A DNA stretch of 64,000 nucleotides, taken from IMG/VR virus record IMGVR_UViG_2897109615_000002, positions 1-64,000 of that record, one strand, 5' to 3'. The number at the start of each line of letters is the position of its first letter. Position 1 is the stretch's first letter. A program made the position numbers and the translations under genes. The stretch comes from an uncultured virus (IMG/VR IMGVR_UViG_2897109615_000002). Lineage: Duplodnaviria > Heunggongvirae > Uroviricota > Caudoviricetes. The notes below the pieces were generated by a model that worked only from the letters and a program-made list of their open reading frames with translations, had not been told where the DNA came from and did not search any database. Shown here in pieces: positions 1,028 through 63,524 of this stretch.

Positions 1028-1082
1028 TATCCTCCACCTCTAATCATCTAATTTTATTTTTACTCTAAATAAAAGACCGATT

Positions 1083-1514
1083 TTATTTAATCCTTAATTG
1101 CTTAACTTCATTTTCCAGCCATTCAACATACGACATCTCTTGAGTGTTTTTTGCATATTCATTTAATAAAGAATCCTCTTCTACAAAATCAAATGCGATT
1201 TCTGTTTTTTCATCAATAGGCAAGTAAATAGCTACAATTCCGTTTTTCGGATAGAAAGAAGTCTCAAACCATGATAAAACATTATTCCCTTCATCATCTC
1301 TCCAATCATGCCGCGCAACGCTTCGATTGTATGCTTCAAAAGGATTCAAATCTAATAAAAATTTAATCTCATCATACTCAATTGAAACCCCAATTATTTT
1401 CCCCATCATCATGGGATCGACTGATTCTTCAATCCATTCATACACATTGTCATTAAATTTAATAATTGGTTTTTTACCTTGTGATACAAGTTCATATAAT
1501 TTAATCGTCTTCAT
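1083..1514 (-). CDS. hypothetical phage protein
   Basis: 143-aa ORF in operon orientation with RBS. Confidence 0.7.
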   Translation of the reverse strand: MKTIKLYELVSQGKKPIIKFNDNVYEWIEESVDPMMMGKIIGVSIEYDEIKFLLDLNPFEAYNRSVARHDWRDDEGNNVLSWFETSFYPKNGIVAIYLPIDEKTEIAFDFVEEDSLLNEYAKNTQEMSYVEWLENEVKQLRIK

Positions 1515-1776
1515 TGAAATAATCCTCCCTAAACCCTTTCACTGCTGGTTCATAATTTGTCACTTCATAAAATTCTTCTTTCTGATTAAATTTGATCGAC
1601 TTATCCAATGTTTTAGCATTCCGTTCCAACCACTCTACTGTATTTTTTACTTTGTTATCATATTTTTCATAGTTATCCGACCAATCATAATAACTGTCTC
1701 TGGTCTTTATTAACCCCAATAGTTCTTTGACATGCTTTAGCTTCACATATTTATCTTCAATATCGGTGATATCGCT
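1501..1776 (-). CDS. hypothetical phage protein (start approximate)
   Basis: ORF coupled to its neighbours; likely start MSDITD. Confidence 0.6.
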   Translation of the reverse strand, partial: SDITDIEDKYVKLKHVKELLGLIKTRDSYYDWSDNYEKYDNKVKNTVEWLERNAKTLDKSIKFNQKEEFYEVTNYEPAVKGFREDYFNEDD

Positions 1777-1967
1777 CATTGAAATAACCCTCCCCAAATC
1801 ACTCCTGCTGCAATGGCAACAATGAAAACTGAAACAAATTTCATAAGTACGAAGAATTTTATGTGCTTTGTTTCGTCCTCAGTTAGATCAAAATCTGATA
1901 AAGCAAAAAAACCAAACACAATTAATAATATCCAAGCTGTAACAATCAGGTCGTTTCCTCCAATCAT
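1776..1967 (-). CDS. small membrane protein
   Basis: Two hydrophobic segments. Confidence 0.6.
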
Positions 1968-2377
1968 GTTTTATTGTGGCACATATTAATATATTCCTGC
2001 AGGCTATTAACTGTTGAAATAATACACCCTCGAACCTCTTCTGGATCTACAAAGTCCATTTCATTTTGTAGAACAAATTCATCAAACTCAATCATGACAA
2101 GAAAGCGATCGTCATTGGGCAGCTTATTAAAGTTAATATTCCTTAATCTTGGAATGCCCTTTTCCTTAATCCATTCAAGGAAGGGATAATCAGCATCGTT
2201 CTTTGACGCTGCGATTTTTAAAAACTCATGAATATCAGAAGAGTTTTCAATATTGAAATAAATGTGGAGACTCTCCTTCATGAGATCAAATAATCGCAAT
2301 AGAGCTTCATCAATTTTATTGTCTGTTTTAGTCTTGAAGTCTATATCAAACCACTTTGAAGAGTTTTCATTATTCAT
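1964..2377 (-). CDS. hypothetical protein
   Basis: 137-aa ORF abutting its neighbours. Confidence 0.65.
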
Positions 2378-2812
2378 TTAATCCCTCCAAGAATCATATT
2401 TTTCAATAACAGTCAGTCCATCCCTATTTCTCTTAGTGTTTTGTTTTGCTAATTTTAATAGTGCATTGCTAGACTGTTTGTCATTAAAGACCTCTTCAAG
2501 GTTTAATAAACGCGTCCTTTGTTCCTTTGTCATTGCTTGAGTATGTAAGTCAGTAACCTTCTTGTTGTTAGCTACTTTTCTAAATTCGTAGTATTTGGGT
2601 GGATTATAAGACTTAAACCATTTTTCAACTTTAAACGGTGACAATTGTCCAAAGCCAAACTTGATTAGTGCTACCTTTTTGCTTTCCGGATGATTCATTA
2701 TTTGTTCATATATAGTCGAAGGTTCGGTTAGTTCACTAGACACTTTGAAACCCTCAATTAGAGAACCGTTATTAAAATGAATATTTACCTTTGTACCTGA
2801 TCCATTTTCCAT
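2378..2812 (-). CDS. hypothetical protein
   Basis: 144-aa ORF abutting the next gene. Confidence 0.65.
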   Translation of the reverse strand: MENGSGTKVNIHFNNGSLIEGFKVSSELTEPSTIYEQIMNHPESKKVALIKFGFGQLSPFKVEKWFKSYNPPKYYEFRKVANNKKVTDLHTQAMTKEQRTRLLNLEEVFNDKQSSNALLKLAKQNTKRNRDGLTVIEKYDSWRD

Positions 2813-2957
2813 GACTGGTTAACCCCCTTAAGCGTTCGACTTCAGCGACCAACCATTCTGCATAACTTATGTGAATTTTCATCACCTTGGTCGATCCAGC
2901 TTGCCGAGACATCACTTCAACGAATTGCTTAATTTCTTCAAATTCAATTTCTTTCAT
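2772..2957 (-). CDS. hypothetical protein
   Basis: 61-aa ORF with GAAGGG RBS. Confidence 0.55.
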   Translation of the reverse strand: MKEIEFEEIKQFVEVMSRQAGSTKVMKIHISYAEWLVAEVERLRGLTSHGKWIRYKGKYSF

Positions 2958-3338
2958 TGAGATTTATCCCTTCTAAATGAAATCAACATTTTTTTCATTT
3001 ACAGCAGAAGTCCAATTTTTACATCATCGACGTAATCAAGATCAAGTGTTAGTGTTTTACCTATTCTCAAACCCAACGAGTTTTCATTGTCGTTTTTAAT
3101 TATGATATGCCCTGTGTCAAAGTTGATATTTGCTACTTCAAACCATGAATTATTGTATAATGCTTTTCCAATCATAATAGCAATCTCCCCTGTGAAAATT
3201 TGAGGTCTTTTACTGCTCTTTTAAATGCTGTTGTCTATTTCTTCAAGATGATTCCCTTCGTATTTAGGACAATCAAAATCAGTTTCATCACCAGTCGAAC
3301 CATAGTCAAATTCATTGCTTTGTCCATATGACATGGTT

Positions 3339-3578
3339 TCACTTTTCAAAGTCATCAAGGTTGATTCCATAAATGCTCTTAATCCAATCTTTAATTATGG
3401 GATCCCATCCTCCAAGTAGACCATTCCATGCGAGGACATCTCTAAACACTTCTGAGCTCGTCATTTCTAAAATTTCTTTATCCATGGAGCCGTCTTTCTT
3501 ATCTAAACCCTCTCTCTGTCTTACATACTGAATAATGCTAATTGGGTACTTTTCTTCTAACAGTTTTGTGTAATCCAT
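3339..3578 (-). CDS. hypothetical protein
   Basis: Likely start MDYTKLLEE after GAGGGG RBS. Confidence 0.6.
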   Translation of the reverse strand: MDYTKLLEEKYPISIIQYVRQREGLDKKDGSMDKEILEMTSSEVFRDVLAWNGLLGGWDPIIKDWIKSIYGINLDDFEK

Positions 3579-3619
3579 TATTATTTCCCCTCTCTGGATA
3601 AAATGAGAAAATAAATATT

Positions 3620-3979: not shown

Positions 3980-4014
3980 TTTAATCTCCCCTTTTCAATA
4001 AAATTAGAATTTCA

Positions 4015-6102: not shown

Positions 6103-6379
6103 TTTAATAGCCCCCAGCAAAAACGAGTGAAATTATCAATAACCAAAAGACTGCTCCAGAAACAGCAAGAAAGCTTTTTGCAATACTCATAAACTCTTGA
6201 AAATCATTCTTCAACGTCTCTTTCACTGCATCACCTTCTCTTTAAAATACAGATTTCATTTAGAATAAAGTCTAAAATACCTCTGCAGATCGACTTTAGT
6301 CATGCACAGTTACCTCTGTCGCCATCTCCGGACGCTGACGGAGACAGATGTAACTTCAGATAATATGGCTCTTTGATGA

Positions 6380-7311: not shown

Positions 7312-7632
7312 TTAAATTAATTTGATTCTCAATTTCCTCAATAACTCCTCTAAAGCTTCTTCATCGACCATTACTTGTCCCTCATGGACTTTGATGATTT
7401 CTTTCATTCGGCCATCCATATCTCTAAATGATTCTGCTTCCTCAACAGTTAATGCTTCTCTGTATTTTTTTATGTAAAGAAGAATATTTTTAAGGGATCC
7501 AATCTCCCCAATTTTTTGGAGATTGAAATCTATTTGTTCCACTTCTAGCCGGAGTAAAGCTGCTTCCTTTTCTAAAACATCAATTTCAAGCTGTTCTTTC
7601 TTTGACAACAATTCTTGCTCTTTTTGTTGCAA
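7312..7632 (-). CDS. coiled-coil hypothetical protein
   Basis: 106-aa ORF, AAGGAGGTGA RBS. Confidence 0.65.
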   Translation of the reverse strand: MQQKEQELLSKKEQLEIDVLEKEAALLRLEVEQIDFNLQKIGEIGSLKNILLYIKKYREALTVEEAESFRDMDGRMKEIIKVHEGQVMVDEEALEELLRKLRIKLI

Positions 7633-8987: not shown

Positions 8988-10107
8988 CACTTATGTTCAG
9001 TAGAAGTCGCTACTTTCTACCCGCTTTCGCAGCTTTATGTTTCCATAAAGGTCAGACTATATCATTATCCTATTTGTAAAAGTATCCACTGTATTTGTCA
9101 TTTTTGCTTTTGATTCTATGGAGGATAGTAGCAGGAACTACATTTAACTGCCTTGAAGCTTCTGTAGCACTTTCATATTCTGTTCCATCTATGATAACTG
9201 GTCTTGAATTTTTCGGCTTTCTGCCTTTAAACTTTTTAGACATATAAGTCTTAAATTCATCACTGTGTGTTTTTCCATAGAACGGATTTTTTTCACCCAC
9301 TCTTTGAGAAGCATATTCTGACAACTTGGCCTTACTCTCCTCACTATGTTTTTTACCTTTAAAAGGGTTATCGTGAGTTGAGTAATAAAGCTTATTATGA
9401 TTTGATATCTTAAGCTTTGTCGTTTCAGTATGCTTTCTTCCAAACATCGGATTATTTTCTCCTTGAACATATTGCCATCGCTTAGCCTTTTCTTCAGGCG
9501 ACATCTTCAAATAGACTTTCTTCAAACTGTCGGCTCTTTTTAGGATGATATTTGTTTTATCTGGGTGATAGCTTGTTAGGTCACCGCCATGGTAAGCTGA
9601 TTTACTTATGTTGTATATTTCTTCATAAAAATTATCAATATACCATTGCTCCTTGGCCATAGCCTCTTCTTTGGGTAAAATATGTACTACCTCTCCAATA
9701 AATACCTGCTCTCCATGTTTATTAAACGAGTTATTTAAATATCTATTAATATGTCTATTGTTTTTTAGATTTCTAAAATGTACTTTTAGCCTCTTTTCAC
9801 AGTCTTCTGAACTGCCAATATAAAACTTTCCTGTATTTTTATTTGTTATTTTATAAACGCCTGATTTTATTTAATCACCCTCTACTTTAAATTATAATAC
9901 AGGATCAAATAGGATACTCTGCTTTTCCATCACCAATAGCTTGTGATGTACTCTACTCCCTCCAACAGATGGGGTTTCGATAGTCGTTGAACCTTCACCC
10001 TTTTAGGTGCTTGGCTGCTGATTACCCTCGGCTACATTCACGTTAGGGCTTCCCAGCAATTAACAGAGTTAACAATGCGTATTACTACGCAAAGCCGCTA
10101 GTAATTA
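8988..10107 (-). mobile_element. group I intron in thyA (~1120 nt)
   Basis: Exon ends ...GCCCGU; intron ends CUGAACAUAAGUG; P (AAUUGCUGGGAA), Q (AAUCAGCAG), R (UCAACGACUA) and S (AUGAUAUAGUC) elements present. Confidence 0.93.
9070..9870 (-). CDS. GIY-YIG homing endonuclease, I-BmoI/I-TevI-like (266 aa, ATA start)
   Basis: Frame is open upstream of the listed ORF: IKSGVYKITNKNTGKFYIGSS...R...E; NUMOD3 repeats and C-terminal HTH. Confidence 0.9.
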   Translation of the reverse strand: MKSGVYKITNKNTGKFYIGSSEDCEKRLKVHFRNLKNNRHINRYLNNSFNKHGEQVFIGEVVHILPKEEAMAKEQWYIDNFYEEIYNISKSAYHGGDLTSYHPDKTNIILKRADSLKKVYLKMSPEEKAKRWQYVQGENNPMFGRKHTETTKLKISNHNKLYYSTHDNPFKGKKHSEESKAKLSEYASQRVGEKNPFYGKTHSDEFKTYMSKKFKGRKPKNSRPVIIDGTEYESATEASRQLNVVPATILHRIKSKNDKYSGYFYK

Positions 10108-10650
10108 ACGGGCTCTTACCTCTAAATGAAGCTTACCTTGTTTTACGTACCATTGCGTCTCATATACACAAGGTGTTAAGGACATTGAGTCTAATTCATC
10201 AGGATTCCAAAGCGTTGTAATATGTCTGCGTGATGATGGATTATTTTTCAACTGATGAAGAAGATAATCAACCTGGTCAACCTTTTCACCGTTTAGCATT
10301 CTGTTCTTCTTACCAAGCTGATAGCCATATGCATTGCCGATTGTACCATCATCTTGTTTCCATTGATCCCAGATATGTACACCCATCTTGTTTAATTCGT
10401 TAACATCATTTGATTTAAGCTGCCATATCCAAAGCAATTCTCTGATTGACGTTTTCCAGGCAACTTTTTTAGTCGTTAAAATCGGTACTTCTGAATTATC
10501 AAAACGCATTTGCTTGCTGATTACACTCAATGTATGTGCTGGTGTTCCATCAGTATCCCATTTGGTTCTGACATCGAATTCTTCGTCTGATACCCCATTA
10601 TTAATAATGTCATTTATGATTGTGTTGTACTGCATATCAAATTGACTCAT
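10108..10650 (-). CDS. thyA: thymidylate synthase, exon 1
   Basis: PILTTKKV, ELLW, YGYQ, PSSRR and LTPC motifs. Confidence 0.95.
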
Positions 10651-12136: not shown

Positions 12137-12346
12137 GGCTTCCCCTTCCTAAATTTTAGATAAAAGTCTTCTTTTATAGAGATGTACATTCCATCAACAT
12201 CCCTGTTATCAACGTCTTATTTTAAAACCTTTTCATGAAACAACCGCCTTGTTGGGCATAATTGTCGAGCTTTTTGAGTATTTTAAGTTGTACCCTGGCT
12301 GAGACTCTCCACTGGACAAACATTATGATCAAAGCCAGGGCCTGTA

Positions 12347-12775
12347 TTACTTAGTTCCAGTCGATCCGTGACCACCTCGATCGTCATTGCCTAGATGATC
12401 TACCTCAATCAATTCAACTGCAGGCATCTTCTTCATGATTCTGAACTGACAGATACGTTCCCCTTTTTTAATTACTGTATCCCGTAATGCATAAGCCGGA
12501 AAGAACCATAAATCATTGTCTCCCTTGTACGACTCATCAATAACACCCATTGAGTTTGTTTCAATGATGCCAAAGTTTTTAAATGTACTTGAACGCGGAA
12601 CAACATGAGCCTCATATCCTTCCGGTAGCTCCATTGCTACTCCTAAAGGGATAAGTTTAAATTCGTCCTTTTTGATTGCTACATCTTCAGCTGCTCGAAG
12701 ATCAATCCAATCCCCTTGCTCAATTTTGTTGATTCTTGTTTGTGTCTCATCTAAGTATTTGATTCTAATTTGCAT
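12347..12775 (-). CDS. yosS: trimeric dUTPase
   Basis: [17 protein letters not shown] and RGGHGSTG motifs. Confidence 0.95.
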
Positions 12776-12826
12776 TATGTGTTAGCTCCTTTAATTTTAG
12801 TTTGTTTAAACTTACCCGTTTATTGA

Positions 12827-13333
12827 CTATTCAAGGTCAACTTTATATTCCTGGGTAACCGTATGCTCCGGTAAAAAGAAATCGTATGAGCTATCCTTAA
12901 AAGGCGGAGATTCCCCAAACATGAACCTTACAAATTTATTCGTATATTCATAACGATACTTTTTCACATATGGAGTTTTATAGTTTCCTTCTTTTACTCT
13001 AGAAGTTTCTGCTTTAACTTTATGTACTGACTTAAACCCTTCTTTTTCTATTACGAAATACAAATATTGTGTATCGTCGATGATCCCTGAACCCAGTACA
13101 AATTTTCCACTGACATTAATGTTGTCTTTGATTGAATAAACACTTACCTTTTCTTCTAATACTGCGTGGTTATCAAAGGGGAAAAACACTGCAATAAGTC
13201 CAGCAACAATTAGTACAACAACTGCAGCAACGAATCCACAGATTACAGATAAAATCAATTCCCCGTATGTATCTATTAAAACGGCTATTGCTGTTATAAC
13301 AAACACAATTCCAGCCAATATCAATAATCCCAT
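12827..13333 (-). CDS. membrane protein
   Basis: Two N-terminal TM segments; GKFVLGSG motif. Confidence 0.7.
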   Translation of the reverse strand: MGLLILAGIVFVITAIAVLIDTYGELILSVICGFVAAVVVLIVAGLIAVFFPFDNHAVLEEKVSVYSIKDNINVSGKFVLGSGIIDDTQYLYFVIEKEGFKSVHKVKAETSRVKEGNYKTPYVKKYRYEYTNKFVRFMFGESPPFKDSSYDFFLPEHTVTQEYKVDLE

Positions 13334-13581
13334 TATTGCCCCCTTAAATCATTTATCAAGGCGTCTAATTCATCAGGTTTAAAACCAATACTTCGGTTTA
13401 CTTCCTCCTCTTGTTCATTAAGCAAGATAGTTACCGGCACACCCATTACCTCAAATTGCGCCGCCACTTCTGGTTCCTGTGTAACGTCAACTGTCTCATA
13501 TTCAACTCCTACTTCATTTAAATAATTGGATACCATTTTGCAGGGATTACAATTGGGTTGCTCTAATTTAATAATCTTCAT
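13333..13581 (-). CDS. yosR: thioredoxin/NrdH-like redoxin
   Basis: CNPC active site, GVP, GF.PDEL; directly after nrdF. Confidence 0.9.
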
Positions 13582-13986
13582 GAAATTGCTCCTTTGTTAT
13601 CAAAAATGAAATCAGAATCCTTTAATGGTTCAACGGTTGCTTTTTTATAACCATTCCCCTTTTGGCTAAAGAAGTCATGTGACTTGGTCTTTGTGCTCAA
13701 TCCATTAATAACAATTGGATTAACATCCTCTTCTTCAAACCAATGATCAAAGCCCAGATTGTTTAATGCTTTATTTGCGTTGTATCTGATGAATTTCTTT
13801 ACATCTGGAGCTAAACCAACCTGATCATAAACATCTTCTGTATACTCCAATTCATTTTCATAAAGCTCTTGTAGCAAGCTTAAAGCCCATTCATACATTT
13901 CTTTTTGCTTCTGAGGCGTTTGTTTCTTATATATCTCTTGAGCTAATAAACCGATGTATACGCCGTGTAGCGCCTCGTCTCTAATA
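13578..13986 (-). CDS. nrdF: ribonucleotide reductase beta subunit, exon 2
   Basis: T-ATT-AGA-GAC-GAG restores [20 protein letters not shown] tail. Confidence 0.93.
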
Positions 13987-14793
13987 CCTTTAGTTCAACC
14001 GAGTTCGCTACTCTCGGCTCGTTGCCCTGTCGCAACCGCCTTACGTTACCGTAAGGAGCAGACTATATCATCATCCCTGTAGGATGCCTCCCGTTTCGAT
14101 TTAAGGGGCTCTCACCCACGCCAATAGCTTGCGCCCTACTCGTTTTGCGGAATTTCGCCGCCTATGCGATAGTCGTTGAACGTTCTATGCGATCCCATAA
14201 AGTCTTCCATCTTCTTTTATGTCGAATCAGACTAACGTAACGGGGATGAAGGCTGTATTTTTCACCAGCTTCAACATTGTTCATTCCAGCAAGCAAATCA
14301 TAGATTAAATTTGTTGCCTCTGAGTCTGTGAGTTTTGACATTGAATTACTTTCTCCAGGTTGTCCTGACATTAATCCAATTTTCATTGCATGTAGAGTAT
14401 TTTCTTTAGGTGTAACTATCTCTAAGTTCCGAACGTGATTGTTTAGTTTATTTCCATCTATGTGGTTTACAAACATTCCTTTTGGTATTTCATGAATAAA
14501 ATATTTTGCGACTAACCTATGTACTAAAAAGTTCTGTGTTCCTTTATTCGGATGCGTGTATCCTATCATTTCATAGCCATGTGGAGTAATAAATGTCTTT
14601 CTTGGTTTCTTTAATTTTTTTGATATGATAACTCCCGTTTCCGTTATCCACCAAGGTGCTTCTTCGACTTCTTTCCTTATCATTTTCACCTCCTTTGGGT
14701 TCGCATAGCTTCGCTGCTGATTGTCCTAAAAGGATTTTCCAGCAATTAGAGAGGTTCACATTTGCCGTTGCCGACAAAAGGGACTATTAAATA
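13987..14793 (-). mobile_element. group I intron in nrdF (~807 nt) carrying an HNH endonuclease
   Basis: 5' exon ends in U and intron ends in G; AAUUGCUGGAAA, AAUCAGCAG, UCAACGACUA and AUGAUAUAGUC elements. Confidence 0.92.
14162..14683 (-). CDS. yosQ: intron-encoded HNH homing endonuclease
   Basis: [18 protein letters not shown]...NLE...EN..H. Confidence 0.9.
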
Positions 14794-15371
14794 ATCAGGT
14801 TAATAATCTCTCCACTCTGCATGAGCTTCCCTTGTCCATAAAAGTAAAGTGGATAATAAAACCCTGAGTAAAACAAGAAGCTCTCCAGAAACACAGATGC
14901 AACCATTGCTTTGAATAAGGAAATATCATCGTTTTTCTGAACCGCTTCATAAATCGAAACAATTGTTTTTGCTTTCTTTTGAAGAAACCTATTGTTTTTC
15001 ACCCATTCGAAGACTTCATTGATCTTCTCGGTTGGAGCCAAAGTTAGAAAGATGTTGCTGTAAGATTTTGCGTGCACCGCGTTTTCCATCATCGCCATGA
15101 AATTAAGAACCGCTTTTCGCTGATGGCCTTCTACGTGCTCGGCCACAATCGGCATTCCCGTGTTCCCCTGCTCTGTATCAAGCAGTGTCAGGCCGGCGAG
15201 AACCTTCATGTACGTATCCTGTTCGTTTTTACCCAAATACTTCCAAGTGAGGAGATCGCCGTTTAATGCGATCTCTTCCGGAAGCCAAAACTGCTTTACG
15301 TTTTGGTTGTAAAACATTTGGGTGAAATCATCTTCATGCTTTGACCAGTTTGCTGCTGTGTAATTTGTCAA
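14794..15371 (-). CDS. nrdF: ribonucleotide reductase beta subunit, exon 1
   Basis: [24 protein letters not shown] and [10 protein letters not shown] motifs; TTG start after AGGAGG. Confidence 0.95.
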
Positions 15372-15382
15372 TTTTGTTCCTC

Positions 15383-15898: not shown

Positions 15899-15911
15899 AG
15901 AATCTGACCTC

Positions 15912-20730: not shown

Positions 20731-20781
20731 CCTATCCTCCTCTTCTGATTTCTCTTTGAAATCATCCTTTTATTTTTATTC

Positions 20782-46608: not shown

Positions 46609-46789
46609 TAATTTTATTTTTACTCTTTAAACATTTATATGTATTCCATCCGCAGCCATCAAATACGCTTATGTCCGCTCCAAGATGCCATCTAAACCAA
46701 ACTAAGTTAAACCAGGCTGTATCAATTATGTACTTTAAATAACCTATATGCCTTCCTCCTTACAATGAAATAATCGTTTTATTTTGTTT

Positions 46790-47289: not shown

Positions 47290-47404
47290 TAACTTTTCAC
47301 CTTTCTTTCAGTTAAAACAGTCTTTTTATTGTGATTCTGTAGGCTCAATTAAAAATCTCTTTCCTTCTTGTTTACAATTGAAACAGCCAAGTCAAGATTC
47401 ACTA

Positions 47405-48719: not shown

Positions 48720-48768
48720 AAAATCTCTTCCTTTCTTATTCCAATGAAATTTTACTTTTATCTAGAAT

Positions 48769-50967: not shown

Positions 50968-51049
50968 ATTCTATCAACCTTTCTGATTTTTATTTGTTTA
51001 AAATGCATCTTTTATTTAGTTACATTAATATTATGATACAGCTCAATAA

Positions 51050-51926: not shown

Positions 51927-52114
51927 TCCATAACCTCCTTAATAACCCGATTACTCCTTCTATCTGCAAAAATGTTTGTTTGGTATTCCTGCAACTGATT
52001 TTCAATAGCTTCCACAGAAGCTAAAGGGAAAGCAGTTTTTTCCCATAATATAAAATCACACTGCTTATCATTGGCATCGGGAAAATACTTCCTTACTAAA
52101 TCTATCCACGTCAT
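51923..52114 (-). CDS. hypothetical protein
   Basis: 63 aa, coupled. Confidence 0.6.
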   Translation of the reverse strand: MTWIDLVRKYFPDANDKQCDFILWEKTAFPLASVEAIENQLQEYQTNIFADRRSNRVIKEVME

Positions 52115-52338
52115 TCTAAACCCTTCTTTGCTTTCATAAGATTTTTATCACTCCATTGAAAAATTTCTTTCAACTCGTTTACAGGGTTACTGAATACCAT
52201 TCGATCCCCGTTACTAAGCGTAATACGCGCTTGACCACCAGGTTGCTCTTCAATAGCTACTATATCCTCATTGGTAAACTCGAGTTCAATCCCGCCTCTA
52301 AATCCAACTTTGAATTTTTTAAATCCATTTTGCATCAT
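52111..52338 (-). CDS. hypothetical protein
   Basis: 75 aa with RBS. Confidence 0.6.
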   Translation of the reverse strand: MMQNGFKKFKVGFRGGIELEFTNEDIVAIEEQPGGQARITLSNGDRMVFSNPVNELKEIFQWSDKNLMKAKKGLE

Positions 52339-52372
52339 TATTCCTCCCTCGTTTCCAACAACTCAATAAAAC

Positions 52373-52597
52373 TTATATTTTATTTTTATTCTTAAAATAA
52401 CCGTGCTGATTTACAACATCTCGAAGTATGTATTGTATTTCCTCTAAATTGTCTTTAACGAAATCTAGATCTCCAATTGCCATTCTGATTTCATTATTCT
52501 CTATGCTGCGTAAAGACCTTTCACATGATACTAAGAGCTTTGTATATTTCCTTAAAACCATAGTTCTTATTTGATCGTTAATTGGTTCATTAATCAA
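52373..52597 (-). CDS. hypothetical protein
   Basis: 74 aa; first gene after a promoter. Confidence 0.6.
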   Translation of the reverse strand: MINEPINDQIRTMVLRKYTKLLVSCERSLRSIENNEIRMAIGDLDFVKDNLEEIQYILRDVVNQHGYFKNKNKI

Positions 52598-53711: not shown

Positions 53712-53931
53712 CTTAATCGCTAGGGAGTTTGGCCTAGCGAATCTCCTTGTACCCTTTTCAGGGTATAGAACTATTTTACTGCATATGTATGAATTTGTCT
53801 CTGTCTAACTTTGTCGAATTCTGAAAAATATGAATAAAATCCTGATATTTGTTTAAAAATACCACGAGTTAATTCACATTGTTTTTATTTTTACTCTAAA
53901 AGTTATGTAAAGTTAATCCCTATAACAGGGA

Positions 53932-54915
53932 TTAAGAATTAGTCTCAATTACTTCAGACTTGATACAATATTTTTCTAAGTTCTCCATATTCACCACTTT
54001 CCTCAGTGATTGTGAATTAAACTCCGCCTCTTCATTCAGGAACCCATATTGTCGAGTTATTTTTTTATAATCAGGTACTTTTAATTCACCCTTCTCTTTG
54101 TATATCTCGTACGCCATGTTGAGCTTTCCTGAGTTGATAAGATTCTTAGGTGAAAAGAAAGGTTCTTCTAAAAATTTTTGAAACTGACTAAAAGAACGGT
54201 GAACTAAAAATTTGTCTGCTTTCATACTCTGATTAGAACTCTTATATTTTAGCCTAAAAATATTGTCGCTTTTAACTAATGTAGCAAATTTGTTTTTAAG
54301 TCCACTCTCTGGCGAACCATTGCTAAGATGATATGTTGTTTGATCATTAGCACGCTTAAGCAACTCATAACATTTATCGCTTACAGTAATTATTCTTACA
54401 CCATGTTTATCATCTACCAGCTTTACCTTGTTATCATCAAGTAAATCGTCACCTGTTAAATTCAGTAACTCTGAATGCTGATAACCATCTATGCCTTCAT
54501 AAATAGCCTGTATCATGGCCTTATCCTGATAATTAACCATAAAATCAACATACTCTTCTACTTCTTTATTAGTGAATAGTGTTTTTTTGTTTTTGTCTAT
54601 AAACTGCTTTAAGTCACCATCCTGTATCTGATACACTTTGTTAATATTACTGTTTGCCAAGCCATTTTCCATTGCCCAGGTTGTGTATTGTCCAATTACA
54701 GCTCTTACTCCTCTTAGTGAATCTATAGATTTGCTATCTAAATCTAAAAATAATGTACGCAGCTCTTCCAAAGAAAAATTAAATATGTCTTTTTTAAGTA
54801 TGTTTTCTGTAGCTGAAAAATCTTTTAGCCTCAGACGATAAAGGTTTCTTGTTACTTCACTTTCGTATTTCTCTAAAAACTTTTCCTTTAATTCAGCATT
54901 ATACATTTCACTCAT
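53932..54915 (-). CDS. mrpR: master repressor MrpR, catalytically degenerate tyrosine-recombinase fold
   Basis: YopR-like sequence lacking the R and HxxR catalytic motifs; last gene of the operon. Confidence 0.85.
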
Positions 54916-54935
54916 ATTAAATTCTCCTTTAAGCT

Positions 54936-56285
54936 TTAAACAACAGCAATTTCATCATAGAATATTCTCTTTAGTTTCTTCTTCATAGCAGTCTTCAATT
55001 GATTTTCATTATTTCGTCTTCCTAATTCTTCAAACACTCTTCCGCTCTTACTAAAGTCAATTGTATTAAGGATACTTTCAAGCTTGTTTAGTTCCACATT
55101 GTTTTCCTTCATCTTCTTGGCCAAGTAAACATAACCGTAAAACATTACGTTATGATTAATGTATGATTGCTTTCTAATGGACGATAAATCATCTTCAAGA
55201 AATTCATCTGGGAAGGCATAAAAAAGGTTATCAAAAAAGTCGACCAGGTATTTCGCAATTTTCAACGCATCTTTTCGAGATTTCAACTCAAATGCATCGT
55301 CTATAGCTTCGGATAAAGTATAATATGTCACAAGAAAATTGCTTTCAATACCAATTTCACTTTGTGGGCTTATTTTATTTTTAAGTTCACTTTTAAACTT
55401 CAGCTGCTCAACAATGGTTGAAGAATGCCGTTTTTGTCCCAATTCTTCAATTCTGGATTTTTCAACTGGGTTAATTGTATTCATTTGAGCAAAGTGAACC
55501 TTAGCCTTTTCTTCATCGTAATTGAGCACATTTAAAATAAATGGTTGATCTAATTCAGGGACTTCAGCAATGGCCTTAACAATACCTGAAATTCGATGAT
55601 ATCCATCAAGAGCATCTAATAAGGTTCCTCGTGTTACAGTGAGGGATTGGTCGCTTGGATCATATTCAACTTCTTCATCACCATCAGATGTTCCAAGACG
55701 AGCGTTAAAAGTTAACATTGATACAATTAAATCGCCTTTAATAAACAATTCCTTGATCTCATCAACTGATTTAGGGTTTGTTTTAGGTACAGGAATAAGG
55801 CTGCCCTTAATGTATTTTCCTTCACGCTGAGTGTTGTAATTGTACTGCAGGATGGAGCTATTATATAACTCACTCAGTTCTTTGGCAGTAATGGAAGTGA
55901 CATAGTTATCCTCTTTAATTTTAATCACATTTTTAAACTTGTATGGAAGCTTAACTACTTCTTCACCGGCGAATACTCTCCCACCTTCAAGCTCTTTTGC
56001 CAATCTGGTTGGAAAATAATTTGACGGATCTAAAGCTTGCGCCCCAAGAATTGAATACATCTCTTTTGAAACAATGTACACTTCTTTTTCGTTTAAACGT
56101 TGTACGTTGTTATCATTATTATTTAAAATTTCTTGGATATAACCAGGGAGTGCCTTGTATTTGTCCGCCATTGTGGCTTTTAATTCCTTCACCATATTGG
56201 GATCATTTTTAATATCAATAAGATTTTCCTCTATTTCAGTTTTTAACTTATAAAGTTTATCCGTTGTCAACAAAACTTCAGACAC
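54936..56285 (-). CDS. yopQ: DndB/ParB-like protein of the repression operon
   Basis: YN.NTQR and LDGYHR motifs. Confidence 0.8.
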
Positions 56286-56361
56286 ATTATCACCTCACAT
56301 AATCATATTAAATTTATCATTATTTTCATAAGCAAGTAAAGCTTTTATATGATTATTTGTA

Positions 56362-57420
56362 TCACTTGTTCAAAAACATTTTAAGTTTATTCTGTATATA
56401 CATGTCTGACTTTAAAAAGAATTCTTTATATTGCTCTAAGGTAACATCATCTAAAAAGGGCATGTCTTCTTTTTGATCAACCAAAACCCCTGGATCTTGA
56501 GAATAATCCCTTTCATTGACTAAATAATGGTCATTTAAAGTATTGATATTGCTGTGGCCAGAGAACGCTGCCACTTTTTTAATATCACCATTAACGCTGT
56601 AAGAAAAGTTTGTTGCAGTATTGCGTAAACTATGCGGAGTTATCTTTCTTTCTTTTGGAATGCCCATAACTCTACATACACGATTCCACATATCCTGTAT
56701 TGAATCAACTGTTAACTTATGAAATAACAGCTCATGTTCCCCATACTCTTGCTTTAACAGCAACAACTCTTCATAGAAAGCCGTGGAAATTCCAACTGGC
56801 CTAGCCTTTTTCTGCTTAGTCTTTTTAAAGTTGACGAGATAACATTGGTGCTTTTCTGAATAAGTAATATCATCCCACCCAACTCTAAGCACCTCTGATT
56901 TACGCCCTCCAGTGCGTGCACTAAACAAAATAAACATCTTTTTCATTAATCTATTCTGACGCTCAGTAACATACGCTGCCTCAGCAAATTCATCAGCTTC
57001 AGATATTCCTTCAAAAGAGCCTGCTGGATTCTTTTCTGTTGGAAGAGGTCTAAAATTAAATACAGATGAATCACACTCATGTTCAGATTCAAGATACTTA
57101 ATCATGCTTTTCAGTGCGGCAATCTTATTGTTAATTGTTGAATTGGAGTTACTTTTATTTTTAGCCAAATGGGTTCGATAATCATACAGGTCGCTTTTCT
57201 TGATCGCCAGGTCACTCTCAGTTAAATATTCAATATCCTTGGCAGCATAATGGTTGAAAAACTCTCTTATATGCCTTTCATACGTGGCTCTAGTATTAGA
57301 CTTTTCAATTTCTCCAGTTTCTCGATCCCTGTTTCTTAAATCTAATTCATCAAACCACCTATTTATGTTATTGTATATTGAATAATCCCTTAGTGTTGAC
57401 GCTTTCTTTTGAGCTCCCAT
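56362..57420 (-). CDS. yopP: tyrosine recombinase-family protein
   Basis: TGGRKSE, KTKQK, HSLR, GH and DHY catalytic set. Confidence 0.88.
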   Translation of the reverse strand: MGAQKKASTLRDYSIYNNINRWFDELDLRNRDRETGEIEKSNTRATYERHIREFFNHYAAKDIEYLTESDLAIKKSDLYDYRTHLAKNKSNSNSTINNKIAALKSMIKYLESEHECDSSVFNFRPLPTEKNPAGSFEGISEADEFAEAAYVTERQNRLMKKMFILFSARTGGRKSEVLRVGWDDITYSEKHQCYLVNFKKTKQKKARPVGISTAFYEELLLLKQEYGEHELLFHKLTVDSIQDMWNRVCRVMGIPKERKITPHSLRNTATNFSYSVNGDIKKVAAFSGHSNINTLNDHYLVNERDYSQDPGVLVDQKEDMPFLDDVTLEQYKEFFLKSDMYIQNKLKMFLNK

Positions 57421-57429
57421 AATGACACC

Positions 57430-57594
57430 TCATATCATTTTTTTCATTAAGTATTGATCAAATTCTTGCCATGCAACAATCCATTCATTTTCACCTTGAA
57501 TATTACTCAGTAGCATTATATTGGCGTTACAGATTTCCATTTGCTTTAGCATGTCGTATTCTTTAAGAGCGTTAATTAAGATGTCTGTATTCAT
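57430..57594 (-). CDS. 54-aa hypothetical protein of the repression operon
   Basis: MNTDILINALKEYDMLKQ...; AGGTG RBS. Confidence 0.6.
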   Translation of the reverse strand: MNTDILINALKEYDMLKQMEICNANIMLLSNIQGENEWIVAWQEFDQYLMKKMI

Positions 57595-57632
57595 TTTATC
57601 ACACCTAATTTATTTTTATTCTATAATAAAAT

Positions 57633-57863
57633 TTAGTTTAGGACATTTACCCTTTCGTCCTTACAGACGTTTATAATTGGCATCCCCGTTAATTCCTCAT
57701 AAAGCTCCTCTTCGAATCCAACCCATTCATCACTTGTCGCTTCTCTTCGTAGGAACTCATTATAAGCTACTGCTATCTCAGGCTGCTCTAAAAACTTTAA
57801 AACGATCATATGCTTTTTCCAAACTTTAGCCTTGTTTTCTTCTGTATAATATTTATTATTCAT
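57633..57863 (-). CDS. phi3T_93-like lysogeny factor (MazE/AimX binder)
   Basis: MNNKYYTEENKAKVWKKHMIVLKFLEQP resembles the recalled phi3T_93 sequence; position matches. Confidence 0.7.
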   Translation of the reverse strand: MNNKYYTEENKAKVWKKHMIVLKFLEQPEIAVAYNEFLRREATSDEWVGFEEELYEELTGMPIINVCKDERVNVLN

Positions 57864-59827: not shown

Positions 59828-59993
59828 TGGTTACTCCACCCCTTCCCAACTAATGTTCCCTTGTTTATAATATACATTAGAGTTGTCAGAATTACAAGTA
59901 TTTATTTTATTTTTATCCTAATTATTTTTTAAGGAATGCTTATCTGTTTAAAATTCGTATTTTATTTAAAAAAAGGGGGATCGCCCCCGACTT

Positions 59994-61391
59994 TTATTTG
60001 TCCAGAATAATTTTTGCTTGTGAAAATTTTTGGTTTAAATTCCTGTTTTCTTTCATACTATTTAAAATGATTTCTTCATCCAATCCTATCTTTTTCAGGA
60101 TTAAAAATGTTAATAGTCCATTCATTCTTAAGGAGGCGTAATATTTCTCAACTGCTCGATGGAAAACCTTAGTTTTGTTTGTTAGATCATAGTGAGTAAG
60201 ATAGTTTCTAGTCTCAACAAGTCCAAAAATAAAACTGTCCCTTTTTTTATTATTACCCGAAAGGAAGTTTTTTGTATCTGTTGATTGTTGATTAAATAAC
60301 TCCTTTAGTCGCTTCATAAGATTAACTTCATTAATATGCTTTAACTTATTTAAGAAAAATTGCTTATGGTCAACTGAAACATTAGAATTAATAAACTCTC
60401 TTACTTTTTCAGTTTCAAATGTTAGTTCTTGGTTAAATTCTAAGCTGGAGCAATATCTTCTGTGAAATATCTCTAAACACTGAATATTTTTAATGAATTT
60501 GGTTTCCACGAACTCTTTCTGATCTTTACTGTTCATAAATAAACTAACTATTGTACTCAGCTTTTCTCTTTCTTGAAACCAGTTATTTAACAAAGTTTCA
60601 TAATTGTGTCTTACCTTATTATAATCAAACAAGAAATTTGTATTCTTCTGTTTAAGGGCTTCTCTGTGATGTTGAAAGTATTTATATTTCAATTGTTTTT
60701 TATCTTCTGTCACGTTTAATGTGATATTTATATCGTAGTTAATGTTGTTCATTAGAATGTTTATAAGTCTAACCTGATGATTTACATTCTCATGAAACCA
60801 TTTCAAATCTTTCCTTTCTGATGGGATTATATTAAATCCACTAACATGCTCCATAGATACACACTGTCCAGATTTTTGATTCTTAATCTTTACCTCACTA
60901 GTTTCTTGTACTACAAAATCTTTGACTGTAACCTTGTTTATGTTTATTCTCTCATAATGTATTTCATGTTTTTCACCATTAGAGTCAAATATTTGAGTGA
61001 AGGCGCTCAAACCCATCCATTCTGTTAAATTCCCAGTTGAAAACTCAGCAGAGTCAAATTTTTCTGGAAATGCCTCTGTGTAATCTCCTACTAAAAAGCT
61101 CCTAATTTCATAAACTGAAGTGGGTATTCCAGGTGATCTAAAGTTTGATTTTCCTATTGCAAGAACATCAAGTTTATACAATTCGCCATCTACTGATATT
61201 CCATTGATAACTTTTGGAGTGTCACCAATATCAATAAAGTCATTAACTAATGTACCCATTATCTCTAATGTGATTTCTTCTGGTTTATATATTAACGTAC
61301 CTGGAACTTGATTTTCTTTATCTTTATCAATCCACCAATACCCTTGTACAGAAAAAACATCAAAAATATCTTTATTTACTATGTTTTTCAT
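59994..61391 (-). CDS. ApeA-like HEPN protein (candidate anti-phage RNase)
   Basis: N-terminal GYWW...VPGTL; Q.LE.FHR; RNYLTH (RxxxxH) motif; low GC; own terminator at 59975-59988. Confidence 0.8.
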   Translation of the reverse strand: MKNIVNKDIFDVFSVQGYWWIDKDKENQVPGTLIYKPEEITLEIMGTLVNDFIDIGDTPKVINGISVDGELYKLDVLAIGKSNFRSPGIPTSVYEIRSFLVGDYTEAFPEKFDSAEFSTGNLTEWMGLSAFTQIFDSNGEKHEIHYERININKVTVKDFVVQETSEVKIKNQKSGQCVSMEHVSGFNIIPSERKDLKWFHENVNHQVRLINILMNNINYDINITLNVTEDKKQLKYKYFQHHREALKQKNTNFLFDYNKVRHNYETLLNNWFQEREKLSTIVSLFMNSKDQKEFVETKFIKNIQCLEIFHRRYCSSLEFNQELTFETEKVREFINSNVSVDHKQFFLNKLKHINEVNLMKRLKELFNQQSTDTKNFLSGNNKKRDSFIFGLVETRNYLTHYDLTNKTKVFHRAVEKYYASLRMNGLLTFLILKKIGLDEEIILNSMKENRNLNQKFSQAKIILDK

Positions 61392-61557
61392 AACTAAACT
61401 CCTTTTGCAATTAATGATTTTAATAAGGGTTAATACTCAGAAGGGAGCTTGTTTGTTCCTTTTAATCACTCACTTAAGTCGTAAATACAACTTTAATTGT
61501 TTCTCTCTTTCAATTTATTTCTCTTTAACATGATTATTTCATGGCCTTACTCTACAT

Positions 61558-61689
61558 TTAAAGCCGCTTCCATTCAACATACTCAAATCGCTGCTGATAA
61601 AGTTCTTCAAGGATTGCGGCCCATTCAACCCAGCCGTCCGCAACAATGCTTTTCTTCTCTCCATCCTCAATCCATTCAATCCAGTACAC
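61558..61689 (-). CDS. yopG: 43-aa Trp-rich protein
   Basis: MYWIEWIEDGEKKSIVADGWVEWAAILEELYQQRFEYVEWKRL. Confidence 0.7.
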   Translation of the reverse strand: MYWIEWIEDGEKKSIVADGWVEWAAILEELYQQRFEYVEWKRL

Positions 61690-61916: not shown

Positions 61917-61918
61917 GA

Positions 61919-62170
61919 TTATCCCCTCTTCAGCAGCCCAACAATTTTTATCCCTAATGGCAGAAATCCAATTAGTATATAAAACACCATGATATTTATT
62001 TTATTCTTAAAGAACAATTCAATCATGTTTTGCTCCATTCCTGGTGAAAAGGAATTAATAAGCTCCTGTTTAAAATCCTCATCGTAAACTTGATCAACGA
62101 ATAAGGCTTTAAATCCCGTCAGGAAGCCAACACCAAGCCAGAGTATTAAGAAATACGAAAATCCAATCAT
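61919..62170 (-). CDS. yopE: two-TM membrane protein
   Basis: Start MIGFSYF after AGGAGG; 83 aa. Confidence 0.65.
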   Translation of the reverse strand: MIGFSYFLILWLGVGFLTGFKALFVDQVYDEDFKQELINSFSPGMEQNMIELFFKNKINIMVFYILIGFLPLGIKIVGLLKRG

Positions 62171-62240
62171 AAAACCCTCCTCCTTATATACATCGTCTGG
62201 TATTATAGTAGAGTTAAATATCCTATGTAGGTGAATTTGT

Positions 62241-62423
62241 ATGGAAGAGAAAAATTTTGAGACAAATGGGTATGATGTTTCTGTCATTTACGATTATAAG
62301 GAGTACCCTGATGTTAAGTATGGTCGCTGTGACAACTGTGATTACACTCTGTTTAAGAGTTCAGTGAAAAGTGGCGTGTTTTTACGCGAGTGTCGTAGAT
62401 GTGGGATGAAGAAGAGTATCTAA
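62241..62423 (+). CDS. zinc-ribbon protein
   Basis: CDNC...CRRCG; AGGTGA RBS; own terminator. Confidence 0.7.
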   Translation: MEEKNFETNGYDVSVIYDYKEYPDVKYGRCDNCDYTLFKSSVKSGVFLRECRRCGMKKSI

Positions 62424-62433
62424 ACACTCTTCT

Positions 62434-62766
62434 TCATTTATTTTTAGGCTTGATTTCAATTTCAAGATCTAAGCCGTCTAGAATTTTGAGTAAAGTGTCC
62501 ACATTGTAGTTCTTACCGTTAGTAACTCTAATAATTTGTGGATGTTTTAAATTAACCTTTTCAGCTAATTTCCTGACTGAGAGCTTATTTTTATCTAGTC
62601 CATCTTTAATTGCATTAATGATCTTAAGTTTAGGTACAGAGATAGAATAATATTCTTCAGGAACTTCCATAATGTCTTCAATATTCATTTCAATAATATC
62701 GTCTTTATTTGATACCATAAATCCATCAATCCTTTCTAGATAGAATGGTACCATATGAGTTACCAC
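62434..62766 (-). CDS. XRE-family HTH protein
   Basis: LSVRKLAEKVNLKHPQIIRV..G.NY.VDTLLKI. Confidence 0.75.
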   Translation of the reverse strand: MVTHMVPFYLERIDGFMVSNKDDIIEMNIEDIMEVPEEYYSISVPKLKIINAIKDGLDKNKLSVRKLAEKVNLKHPQIIRVTNGKNYNVDTLLKILDGLDLEIEIKPKNK

Positions 62767-62995
62767 TTTGCAATCTTTTATTTCACTGGAATCATGTAGC
62801 TTACATATACTTCAATTCCATCTTCAGTTCTATATTTTGCAATCTTGTCTGGATCAGATTCAATCTTTTCAATAAGTCGCTTTGCGCCTTTATTTCCCTT
62901 TTCACTATTGGTTACAGCAATCCAAGACCAATAATATTAAAAAATAGATGCAGCTTTTTAGTATTAAAGCAAGTTCCCTGTCTTAATTTTTTCCA

Positions 62996-63478
62996 TTAAC
63001 TATGTCGTTGATCAATAAACTCGCTTGCATATCGGTATAGCTCTTTATATTCCGTTTCATCAACTGGAGACTCTATTAATTCAACCCCGTTCTTTACGGC
63101 AGTGTAGGTTCTTCCATCATGGGGATACGTTTCCCAGACAACTGGGATTGTAATATTTTTGAAGTTTGAAAGTTTTTTAGATTTTTTAAATTCTTCTCTT
63201 TCAGTTATCCTAGAAGCTGCGATGTCTATTATCTCGCCATGCAGTAATACCCACATATGAAATTCGAACGGAGGATTCCACTTGTATTGAACTGGTAATG
63301 ATGGAAATATAACTGATCCTGCTTTTAATTTTGCATTTTTATTGTATTTCTCTTTCAATAAATCTTTTGTTAGATAAGATGTATAAACACACGCGTCGCC
63401 TATTCTTATCCCAGATTTATCAAAAGCAAAGAAAATACTTTCCACAATATTTTTTTGAATAAGCTCTTTATTGTTCAT
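62996..63478 (-). CDS. hypothetical protein (possible Cys-His-Asp papain/transglutaminase-like triad)
   Basis: DACV...HMWV...IIDI. Confidence 0.55.
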   Translation of the reverse strand: MNNKELIQKNIVESIFFAFDKSGIRIGDACVYTSYLTKDLLKEKYNKNAKLKAGSVIFPSLPVQYKWNPPFEFHMWVLLHGEIIDIAASRITEREEFKKSKKLSNFKNITIPVVWETYPHDGRTYTAVKNGVELIESPVDETEYKELYRYASEFIDQRHS

Positions 63479-63524
63479 TTTGCCCCTCCGTAGTCGTTAA
63501 AAGAATGATTTTAACTTAATTGTT

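Follow-up and report, generated by a model that had tools for sequence, protein, structure and literature searches.

What does one short palindrome do at so many gene junctions of an SPbeta-like phage? The question arises from a 64,000-nucleotide (nt) stretch of an uncultured virus of the Caudoviricetes (IMG/VR record IMGVR_UViG_2897109615_000002). This stretch, which we call the window, makes up the first 64 kb of a phage genome of 127,161 bp, and it contains 22 exact copies of the element TRAAA-N6-TTTYA, that is, two inverted arms around a 6-bp centre. We put it at even chances that SPbeta-like phages use these palindromes as fixed crossover joints for the exchange of gene cassettes. The parts of this reading are not equally firm. 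Comparisons of related genomes give good support to the view that the joints are real and that exchange takes place at and inside them. A dedicated recombinase that matches the centres of two joints would be, we infer, the most economical reading of these comparisons.

The element and its position

A first-pass annotation of the window, made from the letters alone, described the palindrome and proposed that it marks the junctions of accessory genes. The check that it suggested, a pattern scan against dinucleotide shuffles split by intergenic and coding position, gives strong intergenic enrichment, with coding DNA at background. The 22 copies in the window compare with 2.65 expected (standard deviation 1.64, largest 8, 100 shuffles), and none of the 100 shuffles reached 22. 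When the spacer was varied from 0 to 15 nt, a length of 6 gave 22 matches in the window and all other lengths gave 1-10. The whole genome has 35 copies, 28 of them within its first 71 kb. Its intergenic DNA (20,986 nt) has 27, as compared to 0.93 expected (standard deviation 0.96, largest 4, 500 shuffles), and the 7 coding copies are on par with other spacings (1-6). For this split, and for gene context throughout, we relied on our own crude calls of open reading frames (ORFs). The window aligns patchwise, at 83-91% identity, to SPbeta, phi3T, SPR, the Goe and SPbetaL phages, and BUCT082/083, and these relatives share the element: SPbeta has 36 copies versus 3 for the control, and the seven genomes that we compared (this one, SPbeta, and 5 other relatives) have 34-42 copies each, with 0-11 for other spacings.

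All 18 of the exact copies in the first-pass annotation are present where it placed them, and four more, at 7573, 24860, 44014, and 52157, bring the total to 22. Its near copies are another matter. If up to one mismatch is allowed, the window has 56 matches as compared to 49.2 expected, and 16 of 100 shuffles reach 56; the 34 one-mismatch copies in the window show no excess over the shuffles. So the element is all or none. As a class, then, near copies do not stand out, and of the four that were named, 2978 does have a single mismatch, while 44982 and 45791 have two and 48382 has a 7-nt spacer.

The copies lie between genes in a consistent way. For 11 of the 22, the stop codon of the upstream ORF lies at -14 to +16 of the start of the site, and for 12 of the 22, a start codon follows 16-37 nt downstream. 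At 1070, 19435, and 41411, the upstream stop is the TAA of the site itself, as had been noticed before; in the 84-134 kb arm of SPbeta, the first TAA of the site is the annotated stop in 9 of 22 copies. Four window copies are inside ORFs: three of those that we added (7573, 44014, and 52157) and 42294, whose ORF stops directly after the site. The core operons are indeed free of copies, with none in 25035-38234 (the yorL-yorE homologues) or in 12177-19434 (the nrd region), and copies at 48745 and 50999 stand on either side of the RNA-repair gene (48769-50967), again as first described. In the literature that we searched on SPbeta-like phages, we came across no account of this palindrome.

When 100 distinct cores are aligned, they give the consensus TYTnnwTRAAA-N6-TTTYAwnnARA. 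In its outer part, T, Y, and T at -6/-5/-4 are matched symmetrically by A, R, and A at +21/+20/+19, so the core sits in a weaker dyad of 28 bp with an 11-6-11 layout, whose outer part is partly conserved. The left and right halves have an identical half-site profile, and the centre has no consensus across slots (we use slot for the position in the genome that a given centre marks). The arms do not behave like a stem: 4 of 9 arm variants on the gene strand give an A.C mismatch instead of a pair, the variants do not co-vary as base pairs would, and when the 28 nt were folded as RNA, 6 of 8 sites had a minimum free energy of 0 to -0.3 kcal/mol. Because most of the folded sites form no stable RNA structure and the arms do not covary, the symmetry belongs to double-stranded DNA. 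Also, the aligned flanks of the sites contain no conserved -35 or -10 box. Within each of nine genomes, no centre is duplicated (3.9 pairs expected), except for one pair at the two ends of the contig of a distant phage (G003); there are no inverted pairs of centres (3.6 expected) and just one self-complementary centre (8.0 expected), which is a coding copy. These within-genome statistics are weak evidence because seven of the nine genomes are related.

Breakpoints, reassortment, and the point of exchange

If genes are exchanged at the palindromes, then homology between relatives should end there, and it often does. Of 234 unique ends of high-scoring segment pairs (HSPs) between this genome and six relatives, 24 lie at -12 to +27 of a site, a zone that makes up 1.1% of the genome. 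We also used 28 close relatives, which are IMG/VR loci that were found through the protein YopP and that are 97-99% identical, plus a group at 77%. Across 44-70 kb, 104 of their 370 HSP ends are within -6 to +21 of 14 sites. This zone accounts for 287 of 4,994 intergenic nt, yet it has 104 of the 232 ends that we called intergenic, which is a concentration of about 8-fold. Counted as unique clusters, 20 of 124 ends are in the zone. This was another of the suggested checks, and it came out as proposed: once relatives are aligned, homology breakpoints concentrate at the edges of the motif.

Assembled contigs from 24 public runs (we used contigs only) have borders at the same places. In three runs, there are contig pieces whose ends are exactly 48747 and 51014/51015, so that they hold the RNA-repair cassette from one site to the next, as if the assembly had branched at both joints. 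And in a contig from run X5, the ApeA cassette (59965-61533) is swapped for 1,928 other letters.

To ask what lies on either side of each joint, we compared 36 related sequences, which include the 28 IMG/VR loci and one more contig (L078) and have 533 sites. Throughout this set, a copy retains its centre and its rank among the joints, with unrelated DNA to either side. To decide whether flanks were homologous, we skipped the 6 nt next to the core and aligned the following 100 nt locally, separately for the two sides. Among the seven genomes, the order of the centres is colinear. After identical contexts were removed, 37 slots had at least four distinct instances. In 31 of these 37 slots there are at least two unrelated families on both sides, in 23 there are more combinations of flanks than there are families, and 10 pass the four-gamete test. 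Between genomes, pairs of sites with identical centres have both flanks homologous in 130 cases, only the upstream flank in 58, only the downstream flank in 120, and neither flank in 146. By chance, we would expect about 6 pairs with an identical centre and neither flank homologous (scaled from the class with 4 of 6 centre bases alike).

The arms tell us where within the site the exchange occurs. Identity falls to background at -2 on the upstream side and at about +22 on the downstream side. The variant of the left arm matches the upstream family in 71 of 73 cases (permutation mean 65.1, reached in 0 of 2000) and does not track the downstream family (64 versus 63.9). Conversely, the variant of the right arm matches the downstream family in 185 of 194 cases (mean 171.3, 0 of 2000), and it tracks the upstream family weakly (174 versus 169.6, 86 of 2000). 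Because the arm variants segregate with their own flank, the exchange takes place between positions 1 and 14 of the site. The first-pass annotation had suggested that the motif could account for the gene-by-gene mosaicism of these arms of the genome, and the link bears up: breakpoints lie at the edges, flanks reassort, and the crossover maps inside.

The centres are more constant than their surroundings. Of 144 pairs with homology on both sides, 130 have identical centres, while 33 flanking windows of 6 nt are identical in 74% on average (85% at most). Among 49 diverged pairs, which come from 17 slots, 90% agree in the whole centre, as compared to 46% for flanking windows (71% at most). If only the downstream flank is homologous, 5 of 156 scored pairs have fewer than four of six centre bases alike. 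The 6-bp core had been described as variable, and it does differ among the slots of one genome. Between phages, however, it is conserved slot by slot, and more so than the flanks.

The sites of the window and their neighbours

The exact copies and one imperfect copy are given here in order. Centres are read on the gene strand, genomes are counted out of the seven compared, and flank families are given as upstream x downstream.

1070-1085, minus strand: junction palindrome, centre TCGGTC, with its first TAA as the stop of ORF 1083-1514; same 16-mer in 7 of 7 genomes; 4 x 4 families.
3999-4014, minus strand: junction palindrome, exact match, centre TTCTAA, left arm TGAAA; stop codon 3 nt before and start codon 19 nt after; centre in 7 of 7 genomes; 4 x 4 families.
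6243-6258, minus strand: junction palindrome, centre TCTGTA, in 6 of 7 genomes; HSP ends of 4 relatives at +19 to +24.
7573-7588, no strand assigned: exact match inside ORF 7312-7632, centre in this genome only; probably a chance copy.
12161-12176, minus strand: junction palindrome, centre GAAGAC, one base away from the GAATAC slot of 4 relatives; start codon 24 nt downstream.
19435-19450, minus strand: junction palindrome, centre TCACAG, right arm TTTCA; its TAA is the stop of ORF 19448-19915; start codon 17 nt downstream.
20757-20772, minus strand: junction palindrome, centre GGATGA, right arm TTTCA; 6 of 7 genomes; 5 x 5 families.
22937-22952, minus strand: junction palindrome, centre TATCTC, near the plus-strand ORF 23042-23389; centre in 3 of 7 genomes and the same 16-mer in the distant phage G003.
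24860-24875, minus strand: palindrome, centre GAATCA, in the yorM-like region, intergenic by our ORF calls; SPbeta has a copy inside the annotated yorM.
38330-38345, minus strand: junction palindrome, centre CTGTAG, 1 nt past the stop of the beta-helix (YorA-like) gene 38347-40089.
41411-41426, minus strand: junction palindrome, centre ACGATA; its TAA is the stop of ORF 41424-41816; start codon 24 nt downstream; centre in 3 of 7 genomes; 4 upstream families.
42294-42309, minus strand: palindrome, centre CAGAGA, through which the last codons of ORF 42291-42602 read; BUCT083 has the same centre with unrelated flanks.
44014-44029, no strand assigned: exact match in the plus-strand DNA-ligase ORF 43649-44278, self-complementary centre ATATAT; probably a chance copy.
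45891-45906, minus strand: junction palindrome, centre TCGTGA, beside the plus-strand ORF 45948-46364; 13 instances, 6 x 5 families; HSPs start at 45890-45906 in most of the 28 loci.
46766-46781, minus strand: junction palindrome, exact match, centre CGATTA, right arm TTTCA; HSP ends at 46780-46790 in 16 of the 28 loci.
47313-47328, minus strand: junction palindrome, centre AGACTG, in 7 of 7 genomes; 31 instances of the slot, 10 x 6 families in 23 combinations.
48745-48760, minus strand: junction palindrome, centre GTAAAA, the downstream border of the RNA-repair cassette; 23 instances, 8 x 10 families; contig pieces of 3 public runs begin at 48747.
50999-51014, minus strand: junction palindrome, centre GATGCA, the upstream border of the RNA-repair cassette; 34 instances of the slot, 11 x 11 families in 25 combinations; contig pieces of 3 public runs end at 51014-51015.
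52157-52172, no strand assigned: exact match inside ORF 52111-52338; 4 instances with one family on each side; probably not a joint, though this is uncertain.
52367-52382, minus strand: junction palindrome, centre TATAAG, marking the downstream end of the conserved lysogeny block, which runs from aimR to mrpR; HSPs begin at 52362-52367 in 21 of the 28 loci.
59949-59964, minus strand: junction palindrome, centre TACGAA, directly after a terminator-like hairpin and between the ApeA gene and aimR; 23 instances, 7 x 1 families; HSPs end at 59965-59971 in 22 of the 28 loci.
61526-61541, minus strand: imperfect copy with one mismatch (right arm TGTTA), where the ApeA cassette has its second border; may be a joint that has decayed; in most of the 28 loci, HSPs start in a cluster at 61522-61568.
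63498-63513, minus strand: junction palindrome, centre TCATTC; start codon 19 nt downstream; 22 instances, 8 x 10 families; the C variant of the right arm occurs with one downstream family only.

Beyond the window, at 70231-70937 of the genome (L045:6231-6937), the cassette between the TGCATA and CAACAA joints has a one-mismatch copy (right arm TTAAA) between two small genes, which is possibly a decayed joint as well.

Nearly all of the genes in the window are on the minus strand. By Pfam, they include homologues of thymidylate synthase, the nrd genes, a beta-helix YorA-like protein, poly-gamma-glutamate hydrolase, SRAP, and DNA ligase; an RNA-repair enzyme with kinase, phosphoesterase, and RNA ligase domains; and MrpR, a DndB/ParB-like YopQ, a YopP-like tyrosine recombinase, AimR, and ApeA. 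The thymidylate synthase, nrdF, and nrdE homologues (10105-10650, 14162-15395, and 17822-18544) are partial ORFs with partial Pfam matches, and an HNH endonuclease ORF lies between them; this fits the intron and intein interruptions that are annotated in SPbeta. In two of the three public runs, the RNA-repair cassette stands alone as a contig of 2,281-2,282 nt. In two public runs, contigs skip 53903-57852, the mrpR-yopQ-yopP block, and have 34 other letters instead, so some relatives or other elements must have these flanks without the module. L078, which is titled as a Streptomyces whole-genome shotgun contig, has 8 junction palindromes in 24 kb and a DNA polymerase that is 98% identical to that of the Bacillus phage studied here; it is probably foreign DNA within the Streptomyces assembly. 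A search with the polymerase led to a single contig locus, and searches with P0008 and P0005 returned no viral loci.

Candidate enzymes and competing explanations

How might the joints work? In our proposal, a dimeric protein would read the arms on double-stranded DNA, and strands would be exchanged conservatively across the centre, in the fashion of tyrosine recombinases. Recombination would be limited to copies with the same centre, the partner being the corresponding slot of another phage in the cell, either co-infecting or resident as a prophage, so that cassettes would be swapped and gene order would not be scrambled. The candidate enzymes are YopP, which is Xer-like, and the Xer recombinases of the host. 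More tentatively, and with a little less than even confidence, we suggest that this is a natural form of recombinase-mediated cassette exchange: about 30 core sites per genome with common arms, each with a private 6-bp overlap as its address, would be used by an Xer-like recombinase that the phage encodes (YopP or another) or by the host's Xer proteins to swap accessory genes between co-resident relatives, one slot at a time, and the joints would outlive the DNA around them.

The gene for the phage's own candidate lies in the window:

56362-57420, minus strand: YopP-like tyrosine recombinase gene, candidate enzyme; Pfam Phage_integrase, 1.9e-14.

It is the sole clear match to Phage_integrase among the ORFs that we scanned, and it lies in the lysogeny operon. 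A weak alignment of its product to XerD and to a XerC-like chain keeps the catalytic R, HxxR, and H. A C-terminal tyrosine is one residue off the aligned catalytic tyrosine and is invariant in eight homologues, and the second catalytic arginine is retained in 6 of 8 aligned YopP sequences. A search of the PDB at the default threshold returned nothing for YopP. In the parts of the SPbeta papers that treat it, yopP is described as a core gene, active in lysogeny, with no known function. We also considered a YomM-like protein, but only an N-terminal SAM-like domain was matched in its ORF, and it is absent from a distant phage with 42 sites (G001).

The element extends to distant relatives. Four distant records that were found through YopP-like proteins have 19, 14, 22, and 8 strict copies, as compared to 1-2 for controls. 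G001 has 42 copies and no 16-mer in common with the SPbeta group. The alignment of G003 to this genome is just 1,959 nt long, at 71% identity, yet the two have five 16-mers in common. Among these are the TGCATA and CAACAA joints, which are adjacent in G003, with their order and orientation kept, and enclose unrelated DNA. When distant relatives were found by their capsid genes instead, five of five had a YopP homologue and two of five had the motif (14 copies versus 1 for the control in G007 and 24 versus 1 in G009). In all, YopP-family genes are present in 9 of the 9 distant records that we examined, and 3 of these are free of the motif, so co-occurrence neither establishes nor excludes YopP as the enzyme.

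Two of the motif-free phages have palindromes of their own. In G008 (L269-L277) there are 12 copies of TCAACA-N3-TGTTGA at 24000-57824, as compared to 0.46 expected, and the right half extends into a TTGAC -35 box, pointing to a repressor operator at early promoters. G006 (L260-L268) has no junction motif; it has an 18-bp palindrome, ATGTTTCACGTGRAACAT, with four copies near the contig ends (at 8, 1412, 2665, and 169045). We take this to resemble the parS site of Bacillus, which is of interest beside a ParB/DndB-like YopQ homologue.

Several observations weigh against addressed exchange by a recombinase. Only 5 bp of each arm are strict, which is short for the arm of a recombinase, and the constant place of the sites upstream of ribosome-binding sites would fit a role in gene expression as well. 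Our counts of pairs are not independent events, as the compared genomes are related. In laboratory hybrids of phi3Ts and SPbeta (Hyb1-3 and PP526179), none of the nine switches between parents is pinned to a site: eight fall within identical stretches of 1.4-18 kb that contain sites, and hence are not resolvable, and one falls in a 40-nt interval without a site. The preprint on the hybrids, in the portion that describes the junctions, places 15 of 16 in homologous regions. As to the enzyme, there are YopP homologues and no motif in G005 (7 copies versus 8 for the control), G006 (2 versus 4), and G008 (0 versus 2), and both the YopP of SPbeta (L002:44275-45351) and a metagenomic protein (P0006) have lysine in place of the second catalytic arginine (of HxxR). 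Finally, no recombinase or DNA-binding protein of the genome studied here is confined to the motif-bearing G001 and G003 as opposed to G006 and G008. Only a YorM-like protein and a DNA ligase are so confined, and this compares just two genomes with two.

The main rival is exchange by short homology. The palindrome would owe its conservation to something else, such as the binding of a protein, and homologous recombination, either general or encoded by the phage (by the Sak4-like YorG, the RecJ-like YorK, or the host's RecA), would make use of the 16-28 bp of identity that it happens to provide, with no part for a specialised recombinase. The same data on breakpoints, reassortment, and fidelity to slots apply to this explanation, and because different slots share only 5+5 bp, exchange that depends on homology would stay within a slot too. 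This phage encodes annealing and exonuclease proteins, which bear these names in the annotation of SPbeta, laboratory hybrids arise by ordinary homologous recombination as far as the preprint's account extends, and no motif-specific enzyme emerged from our genome comparisons. Nevertheless, the island of identity is only about 16-23 bp, which is below what efficient exchange of the RecA type needs, and flanks reassort in 23 of 37 slots despite this. Short homology also leaves unexplained why centres are more constant than homologous flanks, why self-complementary centres are nearly absent, and why one-mismatch copies are not tolerated. On balance we think it unlikely, though it deserves to be taken seriously.

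We give a purely regulatory role still less credence, and consider it improbable. Here, a dimeric protein of the phage or the host would bind the dyads, for instance to block read-through in the lysogen after the manner of mycobacteriophage stoperators, and mosaic borders would coincide with the sites just because both are intergenic. The half-sites are symmetric and about one helical turn apart, they lie at a steady 16-37 nt ahead of start codons, two copies are directly behind terminator hairpins, and the lysogeny operon encodes several helix-turn-helix proteins along with the ParB/DndB-like protein. All of this would suit an operator. But an operator does not account for breakpoints that are about 8 times as dense at the sites as in the rest of the intergenic DNA, nor for arm variants that segregate with their own flank, with crossovers inside the site. 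And if the centre of a binding site is free to vary between slots, then it should not be kept within a slot.

Nor do the known regulators of these phages point to the palindrome. MrpR, which the first-pass annotation had listed as a candidate protein, binds a different element, SPBRE: chromatin affinity purification sequencing (ChAP-seq) gave ten peaks, all at SPBRE promoters, with a 15-bp motif that is SPBRE, according to the study of MrpR (Kohm et al. 2023, PMC10516654). In SPbeta, the ten published target promoters have about 14 bases in common, which are not palindromic and lie between the -35 and -10 boxes. There is no good copy of this shared sequence in the genome studied here. Like the palindrome, SPBRE is a repeated intergenic element of this phage family, and it is read by a protein with a tyrosine-recombinase fold; it differs in its sequence, in having about ten copies, and in being absent from the genome of this window. 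We ruled out that the palindrome is the SPBRE/MrpR operator, as SPBRE is a different sequence at different places. We also dropped the idea of a promoter for YonO, which starts at one promoter upstream of yonK in the relevant pages of the literature.

There is a second repeat in this genome, which is oriented. Its gene-strand sequence is RTAAAAATAAAAT, in most cases with TTWAGA in front of it, and the window has 19 copies at 1051-59916 (for example at 8077, 21028, 36346, and 52667), as compared to 0.10 expected. The whole genome has 24 + 4 copies, phi3T has 21 + 2, and SPbeta has only 6. Several copies are just upstream of -35 boxes of the TTGA type. It may be an operator or an UP-type element of this immunity group, as a counterpart of SPBRE.

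The weakest alternative, a signal in the mRNA (a hairpin or a protein-binding site that governs processing or the termination and re-initiation of translation), would account for an element between stop codon and ribosome-binding site whose TAA or TGA is often the stop itself, but we rejected the hairpin on its near-zero folding energies and non-covarying arms, the outer dyad and the breakpoints are features of DNA, and we consider such a signal very improbable.

To return to addressed crossover joints, do they resemble any known system? The pdif sites that bound the dif modules of Acinetobacter plasmids, and the Xer/dif core, have an 11-6-11 layout with distinct arms for XerC and XerD. The site described here has the same 28-bp layout, with two 11-bp arms and a 6-bp centre. 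As with pdif, the copies are numerous and border small accessory modules that vary among related replicons, and the gene for the recombinase need not adjoin the sites. Unlike in pdif or dif, both arms are the same, as in a true palindrome, with only 5 bp of each strict; unlike in pdif, the centre is conserved and particular to each copy, the slots come in a fixed order, and the replicon is a phage genome. Heterospecific lox and FRT sites, which are used in engineered cassette exchange, have identical arms and different spacers. In the phages, too, exchange may be limited to copies that share a spacer, and the order of the genome is preserved. Their flanks stay with one centre (five exceptions among 156 pairs) and reassort across it, although this is natural variation, for which homology-dependent exchange predicts the same. 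The phage system differs from lox and FRT in being natural and putative as a recombinase system, in having about 30 addresses per genome, and in its much shorter arms.

The likeness to integrons, which the first-pass annotation also raised, is more limited. Integrons have long, imperfect attC sites that fold and an attI site beside the IntI integrase gene and a promoter, and their cassettes queue at one point. The phage cassettes are also promoterless units of a ribosome-binding site and an ORF, bounded by inverted repeats of the recombination type, but they occupy fixed slots that are spread over the genome. We see no attC-type folded site (the perfect arms span 16 bp, and the dyad 28 bp at most), nor an integrase gene beside an attI. 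Of the original comparisons, the one with tyrosine-recombinase sites stands, by the 11-6-11 dyad with its asymmetric centre, and the one with integron-like arrays does not. Mycobacteriophages of the L5 type likewise have a short site, the stoperator, that recurs about 30 times in the small gaps between genes all over the genome. It is asymmetric, follows the direction of transcription, and is the target of the immunity repressor, whereas the sites here are palindromic and are common to phages with different repressor operators of the SPBRE type.

A further comparison is with the PeSLs (promoter-early stem-loops) of T4-type phages. As the study of these elements describes them, they combine a sigma70-like promoter with a terminator stem-loop and recombine with each other by homology, even giving mini-circles (Arbiol et al. 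2010, PMC2839356). By the same account, PeSLs are also short intergenic repeats in the accessory regions of a large phage, with insertions, deletions, and replacements between relatives at these places; the SPbeta element differs in that it has no promoter or stable hairpin, and in that its copies have distinct centres and apparently pair only with the same slot. We did not find a PeSL-type promoter in the junction sites, where just 16-37 nt separate the site from the start codon.

SPbeta has been a model phage for 50 years, and its relatives carry many anti-defence genes and genes that benefit the host in exactly these variable slots. If our reading is correct, then the addressed joint would explain how large temperate phages can trade single genes and yet keep them in order, which is an open question for the mosaic-genome model. 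It would also provide a function for conserved and as-yet unexplained genes of the lysogeny operon. And these phages would contain a natural toolkit for cassette exchange at multiple sites.

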